63,996 bases of DNA, filler included, from Sphacelaria rigidula (GCA_964200075.2; 3 parts of 3 records of this genome joined end to end with filler, not necessarily neighbours in it), one strand, 5' to 3'. Counted from the whole stretch's first letter, positions 46,820-57,170 are shown. A program made the numbers and translations. The notes: a model not told the origin generated them from the sequence alone.

Positions 46820-47045
46820 ATCTGCGTACATTTTTTTTTTTGCGCAACCCTGTCTTGGCTTGAAATATATATTTTCTCAGTACACTCTCGTGTGTCCGCT
46901 TCTCCTGTCTGTTTTCTCCGTTTTCTTTCAGTGAATGTTTCCATTTTGCTTCAGGTCGGGTACGTATACCATGTGACCGCGGCTGGATCCATGGGGAATC
47001 GGGCAATATGCAACAATCGATCATCAATCGAACAATCAATCAATC
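46820..47045 (+). mobile_element. RTE LINE 3' UTR remnant
   Basis: T-rich tract, then cgggtacgtataccatgtgacc...ctggatcc, then a caatc-repeat tail, as at 19850-20122. Confidence 0.55.
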
Positions 47046-50000
47046 TTGGATACTCGGGATTTCCGGTTACAGCAGTACTGACTACTACAACAGTCAGTAG
47101 TCGTGCCTCTGCAAACACTGAGTACCTCGAGTATCGAACTCTATCCTAGGCACCTTCGGAAACATGACATATGATTGTATTGGCTATACTGTGCTGTTCG
47201 GTACATTGCTGAGGCCGAAAAGGGTACAAACAGTACACTGCTCGATCATGACGAAGAAAACTGAGGATAGAGAGAGCGACGGGCAAGGGGCCAATTCCAT
47301 GTTGCGGTGTTGCGGTACGAGTACAGTATCGTATGGGCTGTAGTGCCGCGCTTCACCAAACATCATGTCAGGTCAATCTTACAGAAAACAAATAGATCGC
47401 ATAGGAACATGATCAATCCGCACACCTTGGAGTCGATCTTCCTCTTCACCTCCATGCTCAACATGGCGTTGCTATCTCCACCTATTCACCCCGTATCCGG
47501 TCTGCGTGAGTGTTGCTCGGTCGTCCAGGCATCGAGCTTCATTTATCACTTCCGAATTATTGCTTACTTTTCATTACGATATTTGCCCAACTAATGTTTA
47601 CATCGGTGCCAGAGGTCTTCGAACATCAACATATTAGCTCTATTATTTTTCATATAATACGAACGCATACGTGCCCACCCTTGTGTATAGAAGGAACATA
47701 TATTTCAATTCTAGCAAATAGCACGCAACCATAGAGATGACCCCCACACTAAGAACAGACGCAGATAAACAGCATGTCAATGTGAACTTTGATCAATAGC
47801 AAATGCCTACCTGTTACGCGTGGCTATCAAAGTGCGTTTTGACTATTTATTGAATGGTATTTGAAAATAGCGATACGGCTTTGATGACAAAACTGATGTT
47901 GAGGCTGGCAATTGTCTCTATTGTTGAATGTGAAGGATGTGTGCAGTATCAGACACCATGCAGCGTGTGGATTCACTGGTGACTACGGGACTTGAACAAC
48001 TTTACAACCTAGTGTGGTGGGGAGAAATAAACGTACGTACAACAGTACAGCGTAGATATCAAGATGCTGAGCTAGTCGTAGGGAACAACAGGTTTGCTAC
48101 TGCAGGTTACCGTAGAAGTAGATGGTGGCGGAAGCAGCTAAAGACGCAAATTGACCCGCGACGATAATTGTCTAGAGTACAAAGCGATTGTGAAGTGGCT
48201 ACTACTCACGTACTGTTAACTGTGCTGAACTGTTGTTCAGTACTGTACGGTCTCCTTTTGTTTCGCCGGAAGGACCGGGGTGCGGCGGTGCAAAGCGAGC
48301 AAAATACAGCGTGAACTACAGCGAGAGGGTTTTGAGGATCCATAAAGAGCAAGATGAATCCTCCATTTTTGGACGAAAACATGCAGCTGGACAAGAGGAA
48401 GACAATGACAATCATTGTGCTGTCGATGGCGGTGAGGAACGTACTGTGTAACCGACACACATTATGAACGGATTATCCGACGTGATAAAAAGAGACAGGA
48501 GAGGAAGAGTGCAGTGCAGTGCTCCCGTTTTGTAGTTTAGATTTTTGCACTGCAACGTTTGGCAGCTCGATGAATGCACACCAGACTATGCCATTTTTTT
48601 CGGGCTTTGGATCGTGGCCCATTTTGTGTAAGTAAACCTTCTACGCGTACCGATGGATCGCTGGGAGAGGTAGCCTTTTTCAGAGGAAAAGTTTTGCTAA
48701 AATCTGTCACCAGTGCTCAGTATTGTTGGGCCGTATCGTTGGGCCCGTTTTTACGAGGCAAGAAAAGTGAGAACACGCTGTGAGAGTTGGAGGCACCGAG
48801 TTCATGGGTACGGGTCGTTATTAAATAATTAAACTCAAATCAGCTCATCTTTTCGTTGTTTTCCATGATTCTCGAACGGATTTAACCCGGGATTTCTGCG
48901 TTGGTGTACACACGTGCGCTACTTGAGCCCCGTGTACCGCAGAGAGGTCAAGAAGGTCGAGTTGTCGGGGGGTTTTCATTCCCAGGCCCAGCCTGGGCTT
49001 CATTTCCCCCCGCCAGCTGGCTACAGCCCAGAACATGACAGTATTTCGATGATATTTTCACGAGCACCATTTCACCATGAAGCAAGCTTACGGTACACCT
49101 TCGACAGGGGGCAGTGCTCTAGCACACGGGGTCGCACGCGCAAGAGAGATACATGTTTACGTTAGCTGTCTTATGTTCGGTGCGTATAGTGCTTGGTCGT
49201 CTTCGCCATTGCATTCTCTAAATAATTTCTGGCACGGCACCGACTGTATCTTTACCGCGAGATGCGCCAACCCTGGCCAGGCGGTGGGCATCGCGTGAGT
49301 CATGTCTGTGCAGCACCGATCAACACGAGCCATCCAGAACAAAAGCACGACGGCCAACAATAGGGATCCAGCCGCATTCATTCTGATATTGTCTTTTTCT
49401 CGGGTTGTGACGTCCGGGAGCATGAAACAACGCACAATGACGACGATAGCACCATCTGATCTCATGCCCGGCCCGTATCCAAAGCCGCGGAGGGTACAGG
49501 AGGCGGAGCAAGTTGAGCGCAAATGGGGACTGCGACGCCAACGCCGGCCACCGCAATCATACCGCAGGCATGACGATGCTCATAGCGAACGTTTGGTACA
49601 CCAACCCTTATACAGAAAGACAAAGCACTCCTTGTGAGCCCGTTGTTGTCGTTGATACCATCTCTCCGCAGCACGGTCCTGTACTGCGGCTGCGGGCTGC
49701 AGAAGGCCGGTAAACACAAGTGTGACAGAGTCCATGCTAAAATCAAGTTAGCGTTATGAAATGCGTTATGAAACGTAGAAGGACTGGTAATAATTCAAAT
49801 TAAATCACTTGAAATGAGTGTTTGCGTCATGAAATTTGGCCCGTACCCGTGGGCCCGCCGCCGAGTTGAAGAGATTCTGGCGGTTCGGGTGATTTTTTTT
49901 CTTCTCCTTCCGATTGGTTGCGAGCTGATAGGCAACCAATTGGAAGGACAAAAGATACAAAAATCACGAGAAAATTCAGAAAGGTTCCCACTCTTACGGC

Positions 50001-51329
50001 GCGTTCTCGCGTTTCTTGTTGGGGTGAAACAGGTCCTTATGGAGGTGGAACAGTGTGCTTCCTGAAAACATGTCATCTCTCAACTTCTTCCATGCCGCGT
50101 GATTGGTCGGTGCAATACCACCCCTCAAGGAGACAGGAATAGGGGGGAAAACTGTCTGCGCGAACAGATTTTGAAAACCCTTCTGGGATTTTTCAAAATC
50201 TGTTGTCGCGAACCGGCAATTGCTTTGCTGGAAGGGAAATCTGAACATGGAAACCGCAGGGGCACATGCAAACGTGACACGCAACCCAGCAACACGAGAA
50301 ACTGAGAGCCCCAATACCCCCGCGAAAAAAGCCTTCTACGTAACTTAAGCCGTGGCTGCTGATCGAGTTTTGCTTCCCTATGGTCGAATGGTTCAAATTA
50401 AATGAGAAACAGTAGATTGTGTCAGATGCTCGTCGGAAGCATCGACACGTGAGGGCCAGCAACGGCACATTTTCAGGTGAAAAAATGAATATCAGTCGCC
50501 CACGCGGTGTGTTGAGTACAAAAATCAGTTATTCAAAGTGGCTGATTTTGTGATATTCTACGAATGACCTGGATCAGATGTTCCAGGTGATCTGGATCAG
50601 ATTTTTTGAATGATTTGGATTTAAATTTTCGTGGCCACCGAACACAAGGCTTTTGCCGGAAAAGTGGATTCGCCGACATGACCCGAACTCGTTTTGTGGA
50701 ATTCTCGTGGTGTAGTCGCGAAATCTGACATATTTATTTGTCCCTCCGGTGCACAGTTACATCAGAAAATCCTCATGGTTGTAAAAACTTACCGCCATAC
50801 ACTCGGAGCTGAGCGCTGCTCGCGAGCACGACAGCACGACAGCACGACGATGCCGTAGTTGAAGCCAGGGTAGATAGATAGATTGATTGATTGATTGATT
50901 GATTGTCGCACTTTAACTGACCCCCCAGTGGTCCAGCCGTGGTCTCATGATAGAAGTCCCCAAGAAAAACGATACTGAAACACTCTCTGAGAAAAAGAGG
51001 CGAACAGAACGACATAGCAGACTAAGTCCTAACAAAAAAAAGTAATAAAAAAGTCAACTCAAGCAAAAGCACAGAAATAAATGGCCGACCTAAAACAAGA
51101 AAAAAGGAAAAGTGGAAAGTTCAGAGCAAATGAAATAAAATACAATGAAACGATGGGAAAAAAAAAAAAAGGAGGAAAAGGCCGAAGGGATTCAGGGCAG
51201 CACAGTAGATACAGACTCACACCAGTGGGCACCGCAGAGCCGCAGACTAAACATAATTAACAACTGATATGAGCAGACAGGATTCTCCGATCGGCAGCCC
51301 TCGACGCAGCAGCCTCTCGCTTGTCTGCG

Positions 51330-53089
51330 CGTCGCCACGTGTCCTCAAACTCTTCCGCTCCCTTTTCAACTTCAATATGCCATTTGCCCAGGTCCTTCGC
51401 CACAGTGACTCAATCGTATGCATCGTTAACCTCTACACCGTAGACGAAGCACTTTCGTCGTGCTCCTCTGTGCGGGACAGCCCCTAGCGCACGAAGGATC
51501 TCCTTTAGGGTATCCTCCCATTGCTTGGGGGGGGGCGGCCGACCTCCTTGGGTCCTCGTGTGGAAAGTCGATCGTTCATAACACGCTTGGGAAGGCGTGT
51601 GTCCTTTTGCCGGACAAGGGCTCCCGCGAAGCAGAGTTGACGTTTGCGGATAGTCATCTCGACACGCTCGCAGTTGGTCATCTCGAGCACCGCTCTGTAC
51701 GAAAGAGTCTTGTAGCCATTTCGATCGTTCCTGTGGAATCAAACCACTCGCAGCCAGAGCTTCCACCACCCCCGCTTTAAGCAGTCGAACTTTCAAGGAT
51801 AGCTCGGTGTTGGGTCGTTCGTAGAGTTGGGAGCTATATTTTCGGATACGCGCCCACGCCGCGCTGATACGGCGGTTGATTTCGATAGACATTCTCGCAT
51901 CCGCGCTGATAGCTCCACCAAGGTAGATGAACTTCCCCGTCTGCTTATACCGGTGACCGGCAGCTCTGATATCCCGGGTGGCCTCCGTGGGACTGGGTAC
52001 TGACCAAAGGCGCATGGACTCTGTCTTGTTCTCGAAGACCATCAGGCCGAATTCCTGGCAGGCTATCACTATCACGGCCATCATTCGAGCAAGGCCTTCT
52101 GAGGTGTTCGAGGCTATGCCGGCGTCGTCCGCATAAAGCATTGCTCACACCGCGCGCCGCACCTTTTCCAGTGGTGTCTCTTCTACGGGTTCACCACCGA
52201 TACCTTGTGGCGCATCATCTAGAAAGACCAAGTCTGAGACGATGAGTGGGTCCGCCGCAAACCGCTGAACGACCATTTCCACCAAACCTGCTCCGAAGAT
52301 GTTGAATAGCAGTGGAGACGAAACGCAACCTTGTCTGAGTCCCTGGCAGACTTCGAACCATGCTGATAGTTCGCCACTATCTAGCTGTACTCGAGCTCGC
52401 ATGCCGTCGTGAAACATACGGATGATCGTGATCATTCGCAACGGGACTCCGAACCGAGCAAGCACTTCCCACAGGAGCGTGCGTTCTACAGAATCGTAGG
52501 CTTTCTGCAGATCGATGAAGCACATGTTTATTGGGATGTTGCTCGCCCTTCCCAACTCCTGGAGTCGGCGTACAACGAACCTCATATCTATGGTCGATCT
52601 TTGGCGCCTAAATCCACACTGCTCTTCCGGGAAGACATCTGTTCCCCCACAAAAATCACCAAGCCTGTTGGCTAAGATTCTGAGGAGAACTTCAGCAGTA
52701 TGTGTCACAAGTGAAATGCCTCTGTAGTTACTACACTGATTCATACCTTGTTTTTTATGTAGCACTTTGATGGTGACATCTTTCCATTCTTGCGGCACCT
52801 CGCCAGATGTCCAAACCGCAGAGACGATGTCGTGGAAGCGGTACAAAATATCCGACGCCTCCCCGTTGAGTCCAAGCTTCAGGATTTCAGCAGGAATACC
52901 ATCCGGACCGGTTGCTTTGCCGTTCGACATAACTCCCGGAGCCTCCACAGTTTCACTTGGGCTTTGTGAGTCTCCTAGTGACAACGCTATTGGTCGTTGA
53001 GCAATCTTCTCGATGATGGCGCGGTCGATAGTTGCCGATATGGCGTTCAGCAATGTAGAAAAGTACCGTTCCCATCTCCCACTGATCAA
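51330..53089 (-). pseudogene. Reverse transcriptase region of the RTE LINE (interrupted)
   Basis: ORFs 52145-53089 and 51410-52141 together carry the RT domains. They are broken just before YADD and frameshifted again near 51720. Confidence 0.9.
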
Positions 53090-53669
53090 ACCTCTGTCCC
53101 GCAGTAAATTGCCGTCTTCATCTCGAATGTACTCTTCATTCTCGATTGGTCGTCCAGACAGTGTCTACCCTCCGTTGAGATGTCTGCACCATCCTCTCAT
53201 GTCCGCTCGAGTACGCTCCTCTAGTTCTTGAGCATACACATCCATATATTTGTCAACCCCAACTTGAATCCCCTTTTTGATATTTTTGCATGCTGTTCGC
53301 GCCATGCGAGTTCATCTCGAGATGACCCCAGTCTAACCATTGATCTCGCCCTTTCTCTCTCCATCCAAGCAAGTTCGAATTCCGTTCTGATTTGAGCATC
53401 CTCGAACCACCCCGGTATACGTGGCTCTCGGGTCAAACGGGGTACCACCTTTTCAGCGGCACTCAAGAGTACGTCGGCAAAGTTCGTAGCCAGTGAACTA
53501 AGTGTATCACCAGGTATACTCTGTTCAAGCTCGCTGATGATGAGCTGGGTGAGCTGCTCACGTCTGATGGGGTCAGATACTATTGCCCGTCTGTCGATCG
53601 GTGTACGCCCAGTTGGGATTCGTCTAGGTCTATTATGTGCGAAGTGACCAAGGAGCCGCACTAGGGCGC

Positions 53670-54455
53670 ACACGATGTTGTGGTCAGAGTGCGGCGAGTT
53701 GGGGGGTTGAAGGTGGACGGTGACATTGCGAATGAGCCTGCGGTGATCTTGCCGTGTGATTATGTAATCGATGCGTTTTCTGTCCGCGGGGCTATTTGCA
53801 ACACCGTTGAATGACGCGAGGTGTTTTCCTTGGGGGTGTAAAATAACGTGTTGACCAGGAAAAGCCTGTTGTCACCTGTAAATCGTACTAGAGAATTGCC
53901 GTTACCGTCGTTGGATCGGGAATCTCGACCGTATGCCCCTACAAATCTACGTTCCTCCTCGCCTGTTCGTCGTCCAGTCCTCGCGTTAGCGTCCATTAAA
54001 ACAAACAAGTGATGCTTGTGGGGGATTCAGTTCACAATGCCGTCTAACTCAGTCCAAAACACATCTCTCTCTTCTCTTTACTGTGGAGTGTCTGTCCGGG
54101 CGTATGCAACGACAAACGTGGCAGCATTTGATTTACCCGCTAGGTTGAAAGTCATCGACATAAGGCGTTCGCTGATGAGTGCCTGAGTCCACGTCGCCGT
54201 GCTGATGATCGACTCCTTGACTGCCAACCCAACCCCACGTTGACCAGCCCTTCCCTTGACCCCCTCTGCCCCGCAACAAAAGACGCGGTATCCCGCCGCA
54301 CAAAGTTCGGGTTGACCTGGTCTTGTCGTTTCCTGTAGTCCGATGACATCACATCCGATTGCTTGACATTATTTCAGGACCACCTCAGCATGGCCAGCTC
54401 CGGTCTTCCCCGTGAGGGACAGTGTACGGACGTTATAGGTAGCCACTTTGAGCTC
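53670..54455 (-). pseudogene. Apurinic-like endonuclease region of the RTE LINE (interrupted)
   Basis: TYNVRT, GLQET, MDANAR, IDYI and SDH motifs appear in order, with an in-frame TAA and frameshifts. Confidence 0.85.
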
Positions 54456-54490
54456 CCCACTACGTGTCCTAGCTTTAGCCTGCTCTATAT

Positions 54491-54841
54491 TCACGCGTCT
54501 TTCTCTTTGTTCGGCTCTCCCTTTTGGTCGGTTGTGCCTTCTAATTTTACGGGCGAGCTGTTATTTCTGTTCCGATTTTTTTCGGCACATCTATCACGGT
54601 ACTTGCATTGCTTGTTGGTCTCCCGGGAAGAGTGCAGCCTTCCCATCCTGCGTCGGCCGCTGTCTCCAGTCCGCCGAATCTGATACTGACTCATAGGTGC
54701 CTCATCTCCACCAACGTGCTTTTCGTGACAGTGTCTCAACGCCGGGTGAAACGCTACAGCTGCGGGGTTCAGTTTGGTTTCCATTCTGGGGTAGAACTCC
54801 GATGCAGCAGGATTCACCCTGGACGTTTCCACCGTCGACAT
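54491..54841 (-). CDS. N-terminal ORF/leader of the RTE element with two PAM2-like motifs and a basic linker
   Basis: MSTVET-SRVNPAASEFYP-RME-TKLNPAAVAFHP, followed by an Arg/Lys-rich segment that overlaps the frame leading into the APE domain. Confidence 0.6.
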   Translation of the reverse strand: MSTVETSRVNPAASEFYPRMETKLNPAAVAFHPALRHCHEKHVGGDEAPMSQYQIRRTGDSGRRRMGRLHSSRETNKQCKYRDRCAEKNRNRNNSSPVKLEGTTDQKGEPNKEKDA

Positions 54842-55010
54842 GACCCACTACCTACACTGTATGTTGTGTTGCCACTGACACGACACGCAGAGAAGCCAGT
54901 AGGTCAACTTACCCTCTCTTACTCACTTGTTGTGTTGTCGACGGAGTTGGCCTACCCCGACACAACCAACCCCAGACGGGTGGCGGTCGGGGGAGCGGTA
55001 TAAATGAGAG

Positions 55011-56074
55011 GGGCCCGTTTATCGGCCGCCGATGGCGCTTGCCTCTACGCCGTTGTTTCTCCAGCTGCAGCAGGCGCGGTAGTACAGCGCTCCGGCGCTA
55101 TGGGCGTCGTAGCACACGGCCCTTTCACTAAGAGCCCTCGCCTCGTGGCTCATCCTCTTCGATCGAAGACGGCACTTGGTCCGCACCGTGTTCGCTCGAT
55201 TGAGACGCACACGTCACATCTTGCCCCTCCTGCGGACGATCGCCGGCAGTGTCCCGTGCGCCGGTTCCGCAGGGAATCGGAGTCCTGATAACGGAAGAAG
55301 CCTTGATCGAAGGCTCCGTGAAAGTAGCGGAAGCAGAATGCTCCTGGGGGTCCTCTACTCTCGGGGCAGCTCCCGCGGTCGCTATCTTCGCAGGCGGTAT
55401 AGCCTGTTCCTCTGCCGCTGGAACGACAGTAGATCCTTCCGGGGATACCATATCGATAACCGGGGCAGACTTGCAATGGGCGGGCGCGATCGCTGTCTCC
55501 GCCGAAGCTGATGCAACAATTTCCACAGCCGAGTCGTTACGAGTGCCATCAGTGGAAAGGGCCCGTTCATCGGCCGCCGATGGCGCTTGCCTCAGCGCCG
55601 TTGTTTCTTGAGCTGCAGTCGGCGCGGTGGTACGGCGCTCCGGCGCCACGGGCGCCGTAGCACATGGGTCTTCCACTGGAGAGCCCTCGCTTTGTGGCTC
55701 AACGTTTCCCTCCTGCGGTCGATCGCCAGCAGTGTCCCGTGCGCTGGTTCCGCAGGGAATCGGATCCCTGCTCACGGAAGAAGCTTTGGTTGAATGCTCG
55801 GTCAAAGTAGCGGAAGCAGGATGCTCCTGGGGATCCTCTACTCCCGGGGCAGCCTCCACTGTCGCCCTCTCCGCAGGCGGCATAGCCTGTTCCTCTGCCG
55901 CCGGATCTCCTGTCGATCCGGCGGCAGAGGAACAGGCTATGCCACCTGCGGAGAGGGCGACAGCGGAGGCTGCCCCGAGAGTAGAGGACCCCTAGGAGCA
56001 TTCTGCTTCCGCTACTTTCACGGAGTCCTCGACCAAGGCTTGTTCCGTGAGCAGGGATCCGATTCCCTGCGGAA
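55011..56074. repeat. Ala/Pro/Glu-rich coding-like tandem repeat (~500-550-bp units) plus a 160-bp-arm palindrome
   Basis: 55011-55420 repeats at 55559-55900. 55748-55907 is the reverse complement of 55915-56074 with a 7-nt spacer. Confidence 0.9.
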
Positions 56075-57170
56075 AACGTATTCACCACACGGTCGGAGAT
56101 GTTGGAAATCCCAGTGATGTTGTATCGCATGCTTCCGACCACGATACTTACGAAGACGGAGAAAATGCAAGCGACTCGTCGTCTTTGGAGGGTGAAATTG
56201 CCGCGGAAGAATATCTCGGCCACAATCCCTTCTTGGGGGAACAGGATGCGACGGGTCCGCATCGATGGGATGAACAACTCTTTGCGAACGAGGGCAACAA
56301 GCCGATCGCAATTTTGTCGCCACAGCAGTTTCGGTATCGTAAGAGCATTCCTTTCCCTCGGCAGGAAATATTTACTCAAGGATGCACTTTGACCTCTGAC
56401 GGCATCCGCTATAGCTGTCGCAACTTCGGCAAGCGCACTCGCTTCACCAGAGATTTCACATCCCCTGAACCCCAGAAGAAGAAAACGAAGAAGCCCGTAG
56501 CGAAGGACGTGGGAGGTGGAGCCTTGAGCGGTGGCGGAAGCCATGGGCTTTGACCACCGGATCATTTTTTGTTCCTCCGTTTTTTGCTCTTTTTTCTGTT
56601 TTGCTTGGGACTAGTACTCTTGTCGTCACGTCTCCACCTCGCCGTCGATGTATTTCCGTCGTTCACCCGTGCACCTCCCTGCCGGCCACGTTACATGCTC
56701 TCGATGTGGCCAGCAGGGCGATACACGGGCGAACGACAGAAAGACATGGGCAGCGAGGGGGACAGGTGACGACAAGAGTACTAGTCCCAAGCAAAACAGA
56801 AGAAAAAGGACAATAAACGGAGGAACAAAAAATGATCCGGTGGTCGAAGCCCATGGCTTCAAAAGATGCAAGCAGTTTTGCACGGAACGCTAACAGCATT
56901 TCGTGACGTTGAAGGTAGAGGATGTGATTGAGAGTGAGAATGGGTCAATAGGTAAATTAATTATTGCAGTCCCGAATGACGCTGCACGAGGCCCGATACA
57001 TCATCTCTGGTAGCTTACCATGGGGACCGTTGATATCTCTGAGTAGGACAGTCTATCGTGTACAAGTACTTGAGTGCAGTTCGAATTGAGTGAAAATGAA
57101 CACTTGGGGTCATCAAGCGAACTGTGTCGCATGGTTTAGTGGATAATACTTTGCTCCATCATCCACCGTC
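55915..57170 (+). pseudogene. Putative decayed Mutator-like (FAR1/MuDR-type) transposase 5' region
   Basis: An acidic linker is followed by PFPRQEIFTQGCTLTSDGIRYSCRNFGKRTRF and KKKTKK. After the hairpin comes CKQFCTER*QHFVTLKV...PIHH. This resembles the FAR1/MuDR N-terminal DNA-binding region; the assignment is by eye. Confidence 0.4.
56537..56860. repeat. Long inverted repeat/hairpin (~155-bp arms, ~10-nt loop)
   Basis: gaagccatgggct...ttttgcttgggactagtactcttgtcgtcac...ggccacg pairs with tgtggcc...gtgacgacaagagtactagtcccaagcaaaa...agcccatggcttc. Confidence 0.92.

Follow-up and report, generated by a model that had tools for sequence, protein, structure and literature searches.

How the protein of a long interspersed nuclear element (LINE) picks out the very RNA that encodes it, known as cis-preference, is a long-standing question, and one decayed retrotransposon in the brown alga Sphacelaria rigidula raises it in a particular form: do two short motifs at the start of the element's protein allow it to dock on the poly(A)-binding protein (PABP) of the host cytoplasm, and thereby on its own transcript? 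The element lies on the minus strand of what we call the window, the whole analysed stretch of 63,996 nt of S. rigidula DNA (GCA_964200075.2), which consists of three parts of three records joined with filler and holds 196 N. Judged by its architecture and its (CAAT)n tail, it appears to represent, in decayed form, an abundant LINE of brown algae of the RTE or RTE-X type, and the motifs in question are of PAM2 type, the linear peptide that docks on the MLLE (PABC) domain of PABP. The N-terminal part of the protein and its junction with the enzyme are encoded by the following features.

54839–54841, minus strand: start codon of the element protein, the first ATG past the 5' untranslated region (UTR).
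54788–54823, minus strand: PAM2-type motif 1, SRVNPAASEFYP, residues 7–18, from translation, alignment and Pfam.
54743–54778, minus strand: PAM2-type motif 2, TKLNPAAVAFHP, residues 22–33, from translation, alignment and the ELM-type pattern.
54617–54742, minus strand: conserved post-motif segment, residues 34–75, ALRHCHEKHV...GRLHSSRE, from column conservation.
54450–54616, minus strand: A-rich basic linker with a frame break, from tblastn of relatives and indels in contigs.

The ATG at 54841–54839 opens a frame of 116 codons that ends with a TGA at 54493–54491 and starts MSTVETS-RVNPAASEFYP-RME-TKLNPAAVAFHP..., with a spacer of three residues between the motifs. No ATG is present in the about 150 bases upstream (55000–54842, minus strand), so that 54841 is indeed the first one past the 5' UTR of the LINE, and the two motifs lie exactly where the original prediction, made from this DNA alone, had placed them (54823–54788 and 54778–54743, three residues apart). 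Both follow the layout hydrophobic-Asn-Pro-x-Ala-x-x-Phe-x-Pro with a Leu/Val-to-Phe spacing of 7, and they stand next to each other at the extreme N-terminus, repeating with a 15-residue period. A degenerate DNA pattern made of two PAM2 cores 15 codons apart has a single match in the window and none in 100 shuffles, and a stricter core pattern, run against the six-frame translation, matches only at the two motif sites. An ELM-type PAM2 pattern (compare LIG_PAM2_1) is fitted by motif 2; this looser pattern has five matches in the 127,988 six-frame residues of the window. For Pfam PAM2 (PF07145), the best stretch comprises residues 5–19 of the open reading frame (ORF).

The segment that encodes the motifs belongs to the element. 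Evidence on copies comes from contigs of three public sequencing runs (X1, X2 and X3), all from one organism, and it should be read with the understanding that summed contig depths are not copy numbers. The contigs cover 50842 to about 55000 at a summed depth of thousands, with both flanks at about 65–130, and the motif segment lies inside this multi-copy portion. Among the best-supported differences, those listed for 54743–54841, only that at 54806 is found in nearly all copies, and it is synonymous (Ala12); the next near-universal difference among those listed, at 54723, replaces Glu40 with Gly, which is also the majority residue in the protein alignment described below. A contig from a second organism covers 54810–54960 with 15 differences in 151 bases. 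Three sequencing runs that we guessed to be RNA contained next to no element words.

When 1.84 billion protein representatives were searched exhaustively with HMMER, 22 proteins came up at E <= 0.001. Twenty of these were kept and aligned with the window, giving 21 members whose sources are ENA, Logan and NCBI contigs; the kept relatives share 35–64% identity with the window and have a median pairwise identity of 0.44, and one of them comes from S. rigidula. The majority sequence of the family reads SRLNPAAxEFxP followed by KLNPAAAxFYP, a cleaner PAM2 pair than that of the window. The relatives are probably all decayed copies, and no relative longer than 256 residues was recovered. The other two proteins, P0014 and P0018, were dropped as relatives, being repeat proteins that match only residues 32–73 and 46–87, respectively. 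The former, an ORF of 506 residues, repeats a unit of about 96 residues at least five times in tandem; each unit resembles residues 26–75 of the module and carries a degenerate motif 2, and the whole has the look of an array that arose from a related element's 5' end.

Other searches added no further members. Word-indexed protein searches with the 116-residue ORF gave no match among proteins of 63–203 or 204–2000 residues, negatives that are weak because the exhaustive search did find short relatives. A metagenome scan with the ORF yielded 533 pattern matches and no relative, and a scan of viral contigs with the module alignment yielded five pattern matches, none of them related. Neither the alignment profile nor residues 1–35 nor the endonuclease read-through matched any PDB sequence, and the ESM Atlas yielded no usable match for the ORF and only generic RVT_1 clusters for the reverse transcriptase (RT).

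Are the motifs, then, a feature under constraint or a quirk of one dead copy? Conservation, measured as the share of the majority residue in each alignment column, is distributed across the module as follows.

PAM2-defining positions: 13 columns, mean majority share 0.74.
x positions inside the motifs: 7 columns, mean majority share 0.59.
Spacer between the motifs: 5 columns, mean majority share 0.49.
Residues 2–8: 7 columns, mean majority share 0.53.
Residues 34–75: 42 columns, mean majority share 0.65.

The 13 PAM2-defining columns exceed both the other 19 columns of residues 2–33 (0.74 vs about 0.54; one-sided Mann-Whitney p 0.0014) and residues 34–75 (p 0.013), p-values that are indicative only, as the relatives share ancestry and are not independent samples. 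In motif 1 the majority shares are 0.70 at L9, with Val in 4 of 20 sequences, 0.75 at N10, 0.85 at P11, 0.80 at A13 and 0.65 at each of E15, F16 and P18, compared with 0.45 and 0.40 at the x positions 14 and 17; in motif 2 they are 0.90 at L24, 0.71 at N25, 0.81 at P26, 0.81 at A28, 0.62 at F31 and 0.71 at P33, compared with 0.33 at the x position 30. The alanines are informative in this respect, their shares being 0.75–0.81 at defining or flanking positions and 0.33–0.62 at x positions (0.45, 0.62 and 0.33), and codon degeneracy alone therefore fails to explain the pattern. Both family-majority motifs have the P1/P8 spacing, Asn at the P2 position (where Ser is also allowed), Ala at P5 and Pro at P10. 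Of the 21 members, 7 conform to the ELM-type pattern, with 0.03 expected from shuffles, and Pfam PAM2 is the sole family matched more than once, in 7 of the 21 at E <= 1, with its scores reaching 20.6 bits in P0010, 20.0 in P0002 (the cut-off being 20) and 19.7 in P0001. The start-codon column has Met in 15 of the 19 sequences with a residue there, which gives weak support to the start because gene callers favour Met starts.

Beyond the motifs, residues 34–75 include strongly conserved positions (C38 0.81, R63 0.93, L69 0.93) and have the majority sequence LRHCHGKHVDGDETRVS.Y.IRR.G.SGR.G.G.LH, for which we found no Pfam family and no confident predicted fold. Identity to the window is 71% (P0004) and 48% (P0008) in the module, against 84% and 62% in the linker and endonuclease next to it, which puts the module's rate of evolution just a little above that of the enzyme. 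AlphaFold2, run with the 21-sequence alignment, gave a predicted local distance difference test (pLDDT) of 59.4 and a predicted template modelling score (pTM) of 0.18, with only short helices, which suggests that the region is disordered, as expected for linear motifs, low pLDDT not being proof of this. Taken across these diverged copies, the motifs are not a quirk of a dead copy, and their defining residues are the best kept of the module. The original prediction, which would have been undone by motifs absent or unconstrained elsewhere, is thus borne out in its two-motif N-terminal architecture: the segment is multi-copy, the motifs are conserved in 20 diverged relatives, and in some of these they are in frame with the endonuclease.

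What might such a module do? The intact protein would begin with a disordered N-terminal module of two PAM2 motifs 15 residues apart, a conserved segment of about 40 residues and a basic linker. The motifs would dock on the MLLE domain that cytoplasmic PABP of the host is assumed to have. As no part of the chain emerges from the ribosome before them, their likeliest use would be to tether the nascent protein to the PABP on the 3' end of the RNA being translated, that is, its own. Such tethering could give rise to cis-preference, start the assembly of the ribonucleoprotein (RNP) and place the RT beside its (CAAT)n start site. The model needs a poly(A) tail added post-transcriptionally beyond (CAAT)n. 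We judge it likely that the motifs dock on the MLLE domain of the host PABP, as predicted from their sequence, and we lean, if only slightly, towards the whole reading, in which docking is joined to co-translational tethering in cis.

Several points weigh against this reading and explain our caution. In the window copy the Pfam and ELM scans that had been proposed to check the motifs gave a divided result: motif 2 fits the pattern, whereas motif 1 misses it, solely by its Val in the Leu position, and the ORF reaches 17.5 bits in Pfam PAM2 (E 0.0032), short of the cut-off of 20. Across the family, the strict pattern fits neither motif in 14 of the 21 members, which limits the pattern test, such misses being expected because the copies have decayed. 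The shared ancestry of the relatives lessens the force of the p-values, and a word-indexed search with the 21-sequence alignment among proteins of 449–2000 residues found none, so that a complete intact ORF was not recovered, in itself a weak negative. Conservation spans the whole 75-residue module and not the motifs alone, and the module may have another main function. On the side of the host, an MLLE domain in PABP is an assumption. It receives indirect support from a paper that describes typical ataxin-2 orthologues in Ectocarpus and stramenopile homologues with a multi-domain structure that includes PAM2 (PMC12898128). On the side of the RNA, the genomic tail is (CAAT)n, the 3' UTR ahead of it is rich in U and encodes no run of A, and a PABP-bound 3' end is likewise assumed, this being the weak point of the model. 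Were there no poly(A) beyond the repeat, the model would turn into one of its own rivals, in which an RNA without a tail receives PABP by way of the protein.

That rival is one form of an account which retains the docking and changes its consequence: the motifs would bind PABP for the control of translation or of RNA stability rather than for cis-preference. The protein might act as a Paip1-like enhancer on its own RNA, bring PABP to that RNA in the absence of a tail, or block the MLLE domain to deadenylase adaptors and the release factor. All the PAM2 evidence given above serves this account equally, and with a tail that is not poly(A) and a U-rich 3' UTR a protein-mediated route to PABP would make sense. 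Protection from deadenylation has been suggested for human L1 as well (PMC7617806), and viral PAM2 mimics have been interpreted as competing with endogenous ligands (PMC10132805). Nothing separates control of this kind from cis-preference, and both may hold at once. To act as a decoy, the protein would have to be abundant, and LINE proteins seldom are. We consider the account unlikely.

A second alternative does away with PABP. The module would be conserved for an unrelated role, such as RNA binding, nuclear import, multimerisation or contact with another host partner, and its likeness to PAM2 would be a coincidence of Pro/Ala-rich disorder. This would suit residues 34–75, which are nearly as conserved as the motifs (0.65 vs 0.74) and belong to no known family, as well as the Pfam PAM2 scores, which hover at the cut-off, and the PDB searches with the module, which found nothing. 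It sits poorly with the motifs themselves, which occur in two copies with the exact Leu-to-Phe spacing and with Asn, Pro, Ala and Pro at their prescribed places, and whose variable columns coincide exactly with the x positions of PAM2. The excess of pattern fits over the shuffles speaks against coincidence too, as do the 8 of 10 residues that motif 2 shares with a validated viral ligand (PMC10132805). A role unrelated to PABP seems to us as doubtful as one in translation or stability control.

A third alternative concerns the reading frame. The claim that one frameshift leads from the basic linker into the endonuclease (apurinic-type, APE) domain holds in the translation of the window: relative to the module, the endonuclease (ELKVATYNVRT) is read in frame -1, and as its frame is open from 54560 and the module frame to 54494, a single shift within 54560–54494 joins them. 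The break sits on a run of seven A (54576–54582), where the module frame reads A AAA AAT (54581–54575), which we take to be the shape of a -1 slippery heptamer. The break might be native, with two overlapping ORFs, the first encoding a small protein of about 100–120 residues and the endonuclease-RT being made by a programmed -1 frameshift or by re-initiation. Besides the heptamer, such an arrangement could draw on the window and P0001, which both remain in the module frame and then stop, and on the contigs without an extra base at 54575–54580, which make up about 45–80% of the depth; RTE-1 of C. elegans, moreover, reportedly has a short overlapping first ORF.

Other copies argue for a single ORF. 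In tblastn of P0004 and P0008, the match leaves the module frame for that of the endonuclease between 54581 and 54578, and neither protein is interrupted there by a stop; inspection by eye puts the crossing of P0006 at this site too (about 54580), that of P0007 and P0010 at about 54566 and that of P0005 at about 54520. An extra base at 54580 or 54575 accounts for about 18% (X1), 50% (X2) and 55% (X3) of the contig depth. Relatives and contigs together therefore indicate that the window lacks 1 nt in or beside the A run (54582–54576), and because some relatives keep motifs and endonuclease in a single frame, the frameshift of the window is most simply decay. The varying junctions in the A-rich linker fit an indel-tolerant spacer within a single ORF, not one fixed shift site. 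Four codons past the heptamer, moreover, the endonuclease frame of the window meets a TAA (54563–54561), where relatives have K, G or E, and homopolymer runs are indel hotspots, while copies that carry a frameshift can still be moved in trans. The copy in the window is dead in any case, with four more in-frame stops in the endonuclease and two more frame changes before the RT. Of the proposal that PAM2-PAM2-APE-RT forms one ORF, continuity across the module–endonuclease junction is seen in relatives, and the ORF as a whole was not recovered; we regard two native ORFs as improbable.

Finally, a chance likeness in an unconstrained 5' leader, with the true protein start further down, is disfavoured and very improbable: it could appeal to a dead window copy, to a Pfam score below the cut-off and to the five occurrences of the loose pattern, but the frame is open from an aligned Met and conserved in 20 diverged relatives, the tandem DNA pattern is absent from all shuffles, the stricter core is confined to the two motif sites, and the motif columns are the best conserved.

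The remainder of the LINE, on the minus strand, is laid out as follows.

54842–55000, minus strand: 5' UTR of the LINE copy, from the drop in contig depth; no ATG within the interval.
53760–54449, minus strand: APE domain with four in-frame stops, from Pfam Exo_endo_phos on the read-through.
51410–53164, minus strand: RT domain plus the C-terminal portion, interrupted by one in-frame stop (52144/52145), from Pfam RVT_1.
50906–51409, minus strand: 3' UTR, U-rich on the sense strand (T 190/504) and without an encoded A run, from base composition.
50871–50905, minus strand: microsatellite tail, (CAAT)6 followed by CTAT repeats, which marks the element end, from sequence and depth.

The 5' end of the copy is approximate, at about 54964 to 55010: from bin 54946–55116 to bin 55117–55287 the contig depth drops from the thousands to about 100, and it is only 135 at 55061 (run X2), a contig free of differences spans 54964 into the flank of the LINE, and a flank repeat without kinship to the LINE begins at 55011. 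At the other end, (CAAT)6 occupies 50905–50882, and contig depth is that of a single copy below 50842. No target-site duplication of at least 7 bases was found around the copy, no empty-site paralogue was found in the repeats that flank it, and comparison of the window with itself revealed no second copy of the 5' part of the LINE.

Pfam RVT_1 matches the RT of the window with 77 bits (E 2.1e-21), and Exo_endo_phos matches residues 46–199 of the read-through (P0025, with X at stops) with 30.4 bits against a cut-off of 24.5. The segment 53221–53871, upstream of the RT part, is read in a different frame, and the YADD box is located in the ORF 51410–52144. On the minus strand the APE endonuclease precedes the RT, as in the long ORF of RTE and RTE-X elements, and a Pfam scan of the window pieces found no domain beyond PAM2, Exo_endo_phos and RVT_1, with neither RNase H nor a restriction-like endonuclease among them. 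LINEs of the RTE clade end in a short simple repeat rather than poly(A), and (CAAT)6 is such an end; another tail, related to it, occupies 47000–47046 of the plus strand. The RTE label that the element had been given agrees with this order of domains and this tail, the two features by which it is tentatively assigned.

Within Ectocarpus, the library of transposable elements (TEs) holds LINEs of the RTE, RTE-X and CRE clades (PMC12477816). Like the present element, Ectocarpus RTE and RTE-X are LINEs with APE and RT, and they are described there as the most abundant TEs of the genome, accompanied by very abundant short non-autonomous partners that share their 3' ends; here, too, the 3' end is the deepest part in the contigs. 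The main text of that paper contains 0 occurrences of 'pam2' and of 'pabp' and no N-terminal LINE module.

Some observations touch on this 3' end and on the surroundings of the copy. The last 170 bases or so of the LINE (50842–51012) have a contig depth 4 to 50 times that of the body, which suggests heavy 5' truncation, a short non-autonomous partner that shares the tail, or both. On the plus strand, a second, related element has its 3' end at 46820–47046, where a U-rich stretch comes first, followed by a block resembling the last 60 bases of the LINE (gtgaccgcggctggatccatgggg...) and by CAAT-type repeats at about 47012–47046; this element could be either a copy truncated at its 5' end or a partner that is non-autonomous, and it was spotted since the tail of P0003 matches both 3' ends in tblastn. 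P0003 itself (182 aa, two cluster members) represents a copy with an internal deletion that joins the PAM2 module directly to the 3' UTR and tail. The upstream flank (55011–56100) consists of nested direct and inverted repeats at near single-copy depth, for example 55011–55152 vs 55559–55701 at 86% and an inverted pair in 55748–56074 at 90%, and is crossed on the minus strand by a long ORF of low complexity, rich in Ala, Ser, Pro and Glu (55128–55991).

How does the module compare with known routes to PABP? Cellular proteins that carry PAM2 and bind the MLLE domain include Paip1, Paip2, eRF3, ataxin-2, Tob, PAN3, GW182 and LARP4. The LINE motifs share with them the core L-N-P-x-A-x-(E)-F-x-P, whose P1 is Leu and whose P8 is Phe, and lie where no fold is predicted. 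Two motifs per protein are likewise found in eRF3 (PMC4829321) and in Tob2 (PMC7430666), with the difference that the eRF3 motifs overlap, whereas those of the LINE are adjacent with a 15-residue period. Unlike the cellular ligands, the carrier is a retrotransposon polyprotein, and the motifs occupy its extreme N-terminus, ahead of endonuclease and RT. Full-text literature searches, as far as titles and the starts of abstracts go, returned no report of PAM2 in a retrotransposon or other TE.

A metagenome scan with the tandem-PAM2 DNA pattern identified seven loci (L001–L007), all encoding PAM2 proteins unrelated to the LINE module. Six of them fall into two coiled-coil families (L001, L002 and L007; L004, L005 and L006) whose proteins finish with two to four PAM2 motifs, repeated every 15 residues, and a tail rich in Lys, Arg and Ser, and L003 encodes what reads by eye as an eIF4G-like protein that starts with three PAM2-like motifs. 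These proteins share with the LINE module a PAM2 period of about 15 residues beside a basic tail, and they have no endonuclease or RT.

Among selfish elements, RNA viruses offer the closest comparison in sequence. Peptides from Hendra and Nipah virus P/V/C (183–198), HCoV-229E N (351–366) and Berne virus N (2–17) bind human PABC, and the Hendra core LNPAAVPFVP does so with Paip1-like affinity, its Leu P1 and Phe P8 filling two pockets (PMC10132805). Motif 2 of the window, LNPAAVAFHP, has 8 of 10 residues in common with that core, and the Berne virus motif is likewise placed at the very N-terminus, in a selfish element that copies a host motif (PMC10132805). The viral mimics differ in being single motifs of animal RNA viruses supported by affinities and a crystal structure (PMC10132805), whereas the LINE has a brown-algal tandem pair known from sequence. 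If the docking and tethering reading is true, mimicry of the host PAM2 motif would extend from RNA viruses (PMC10132805) to retrotransposons. The reading is easy to test because the PAM2-MLLE interaction is small, well understood and open to clean Leu- and Phe-to-Ala controls, and the module would offer a recognisable N-terminal mark for the annotation of brown-algal TEs.

The closest comparison in function is human L1. A 2025 structural study proposes that L1 ORF2p binds PABPC1 co-translationally, which would provide both cis-preference and positioning at the 3' end, and predicts that a 'PIE' element in the linker after the endonuclease (residues 272–297) binds PABPC1 RRM1 (PMC7617806). In both cases a LINE enzyme is thus proposed to contact cytoplasmic PABP directly and co-translationally. 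Unlike the algal module, PIE lies behind the endonuclease, is predicted to target RRM1 rather than MLLE (PMC7617806) and is not a PAM2 motif, and L1, which has a poly(A) end and ORF1p, shows no sequence relation to the module. It is conceivable, though we think it rather improbable, that a LINE without ORF1 and with a tail other than poly(A) evolved a tandem copy of the host PAM2 motif, using PABP, captured co-translationally, as a 3'-end locator and an RNP scaffold in place of ORF1p and of the poly(A)/PIE contact; on that view direct docking on PABP would be a convergent and general requirement of LINE cis-preference, reached through MLLE in brown algae and through RRM1 in mammals. Beside the route of L1 to PABP, the module of the brown alga would be another, unrelated one, and if the docking and tethering reading is true, a PABP-docking peptide in a second, unrelated LINE lineage would lend independent evolutionary support to the idea of an ORF2p-PABPC1 contact (PMC7617806). 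Module and PIE contact would then represent convergence.

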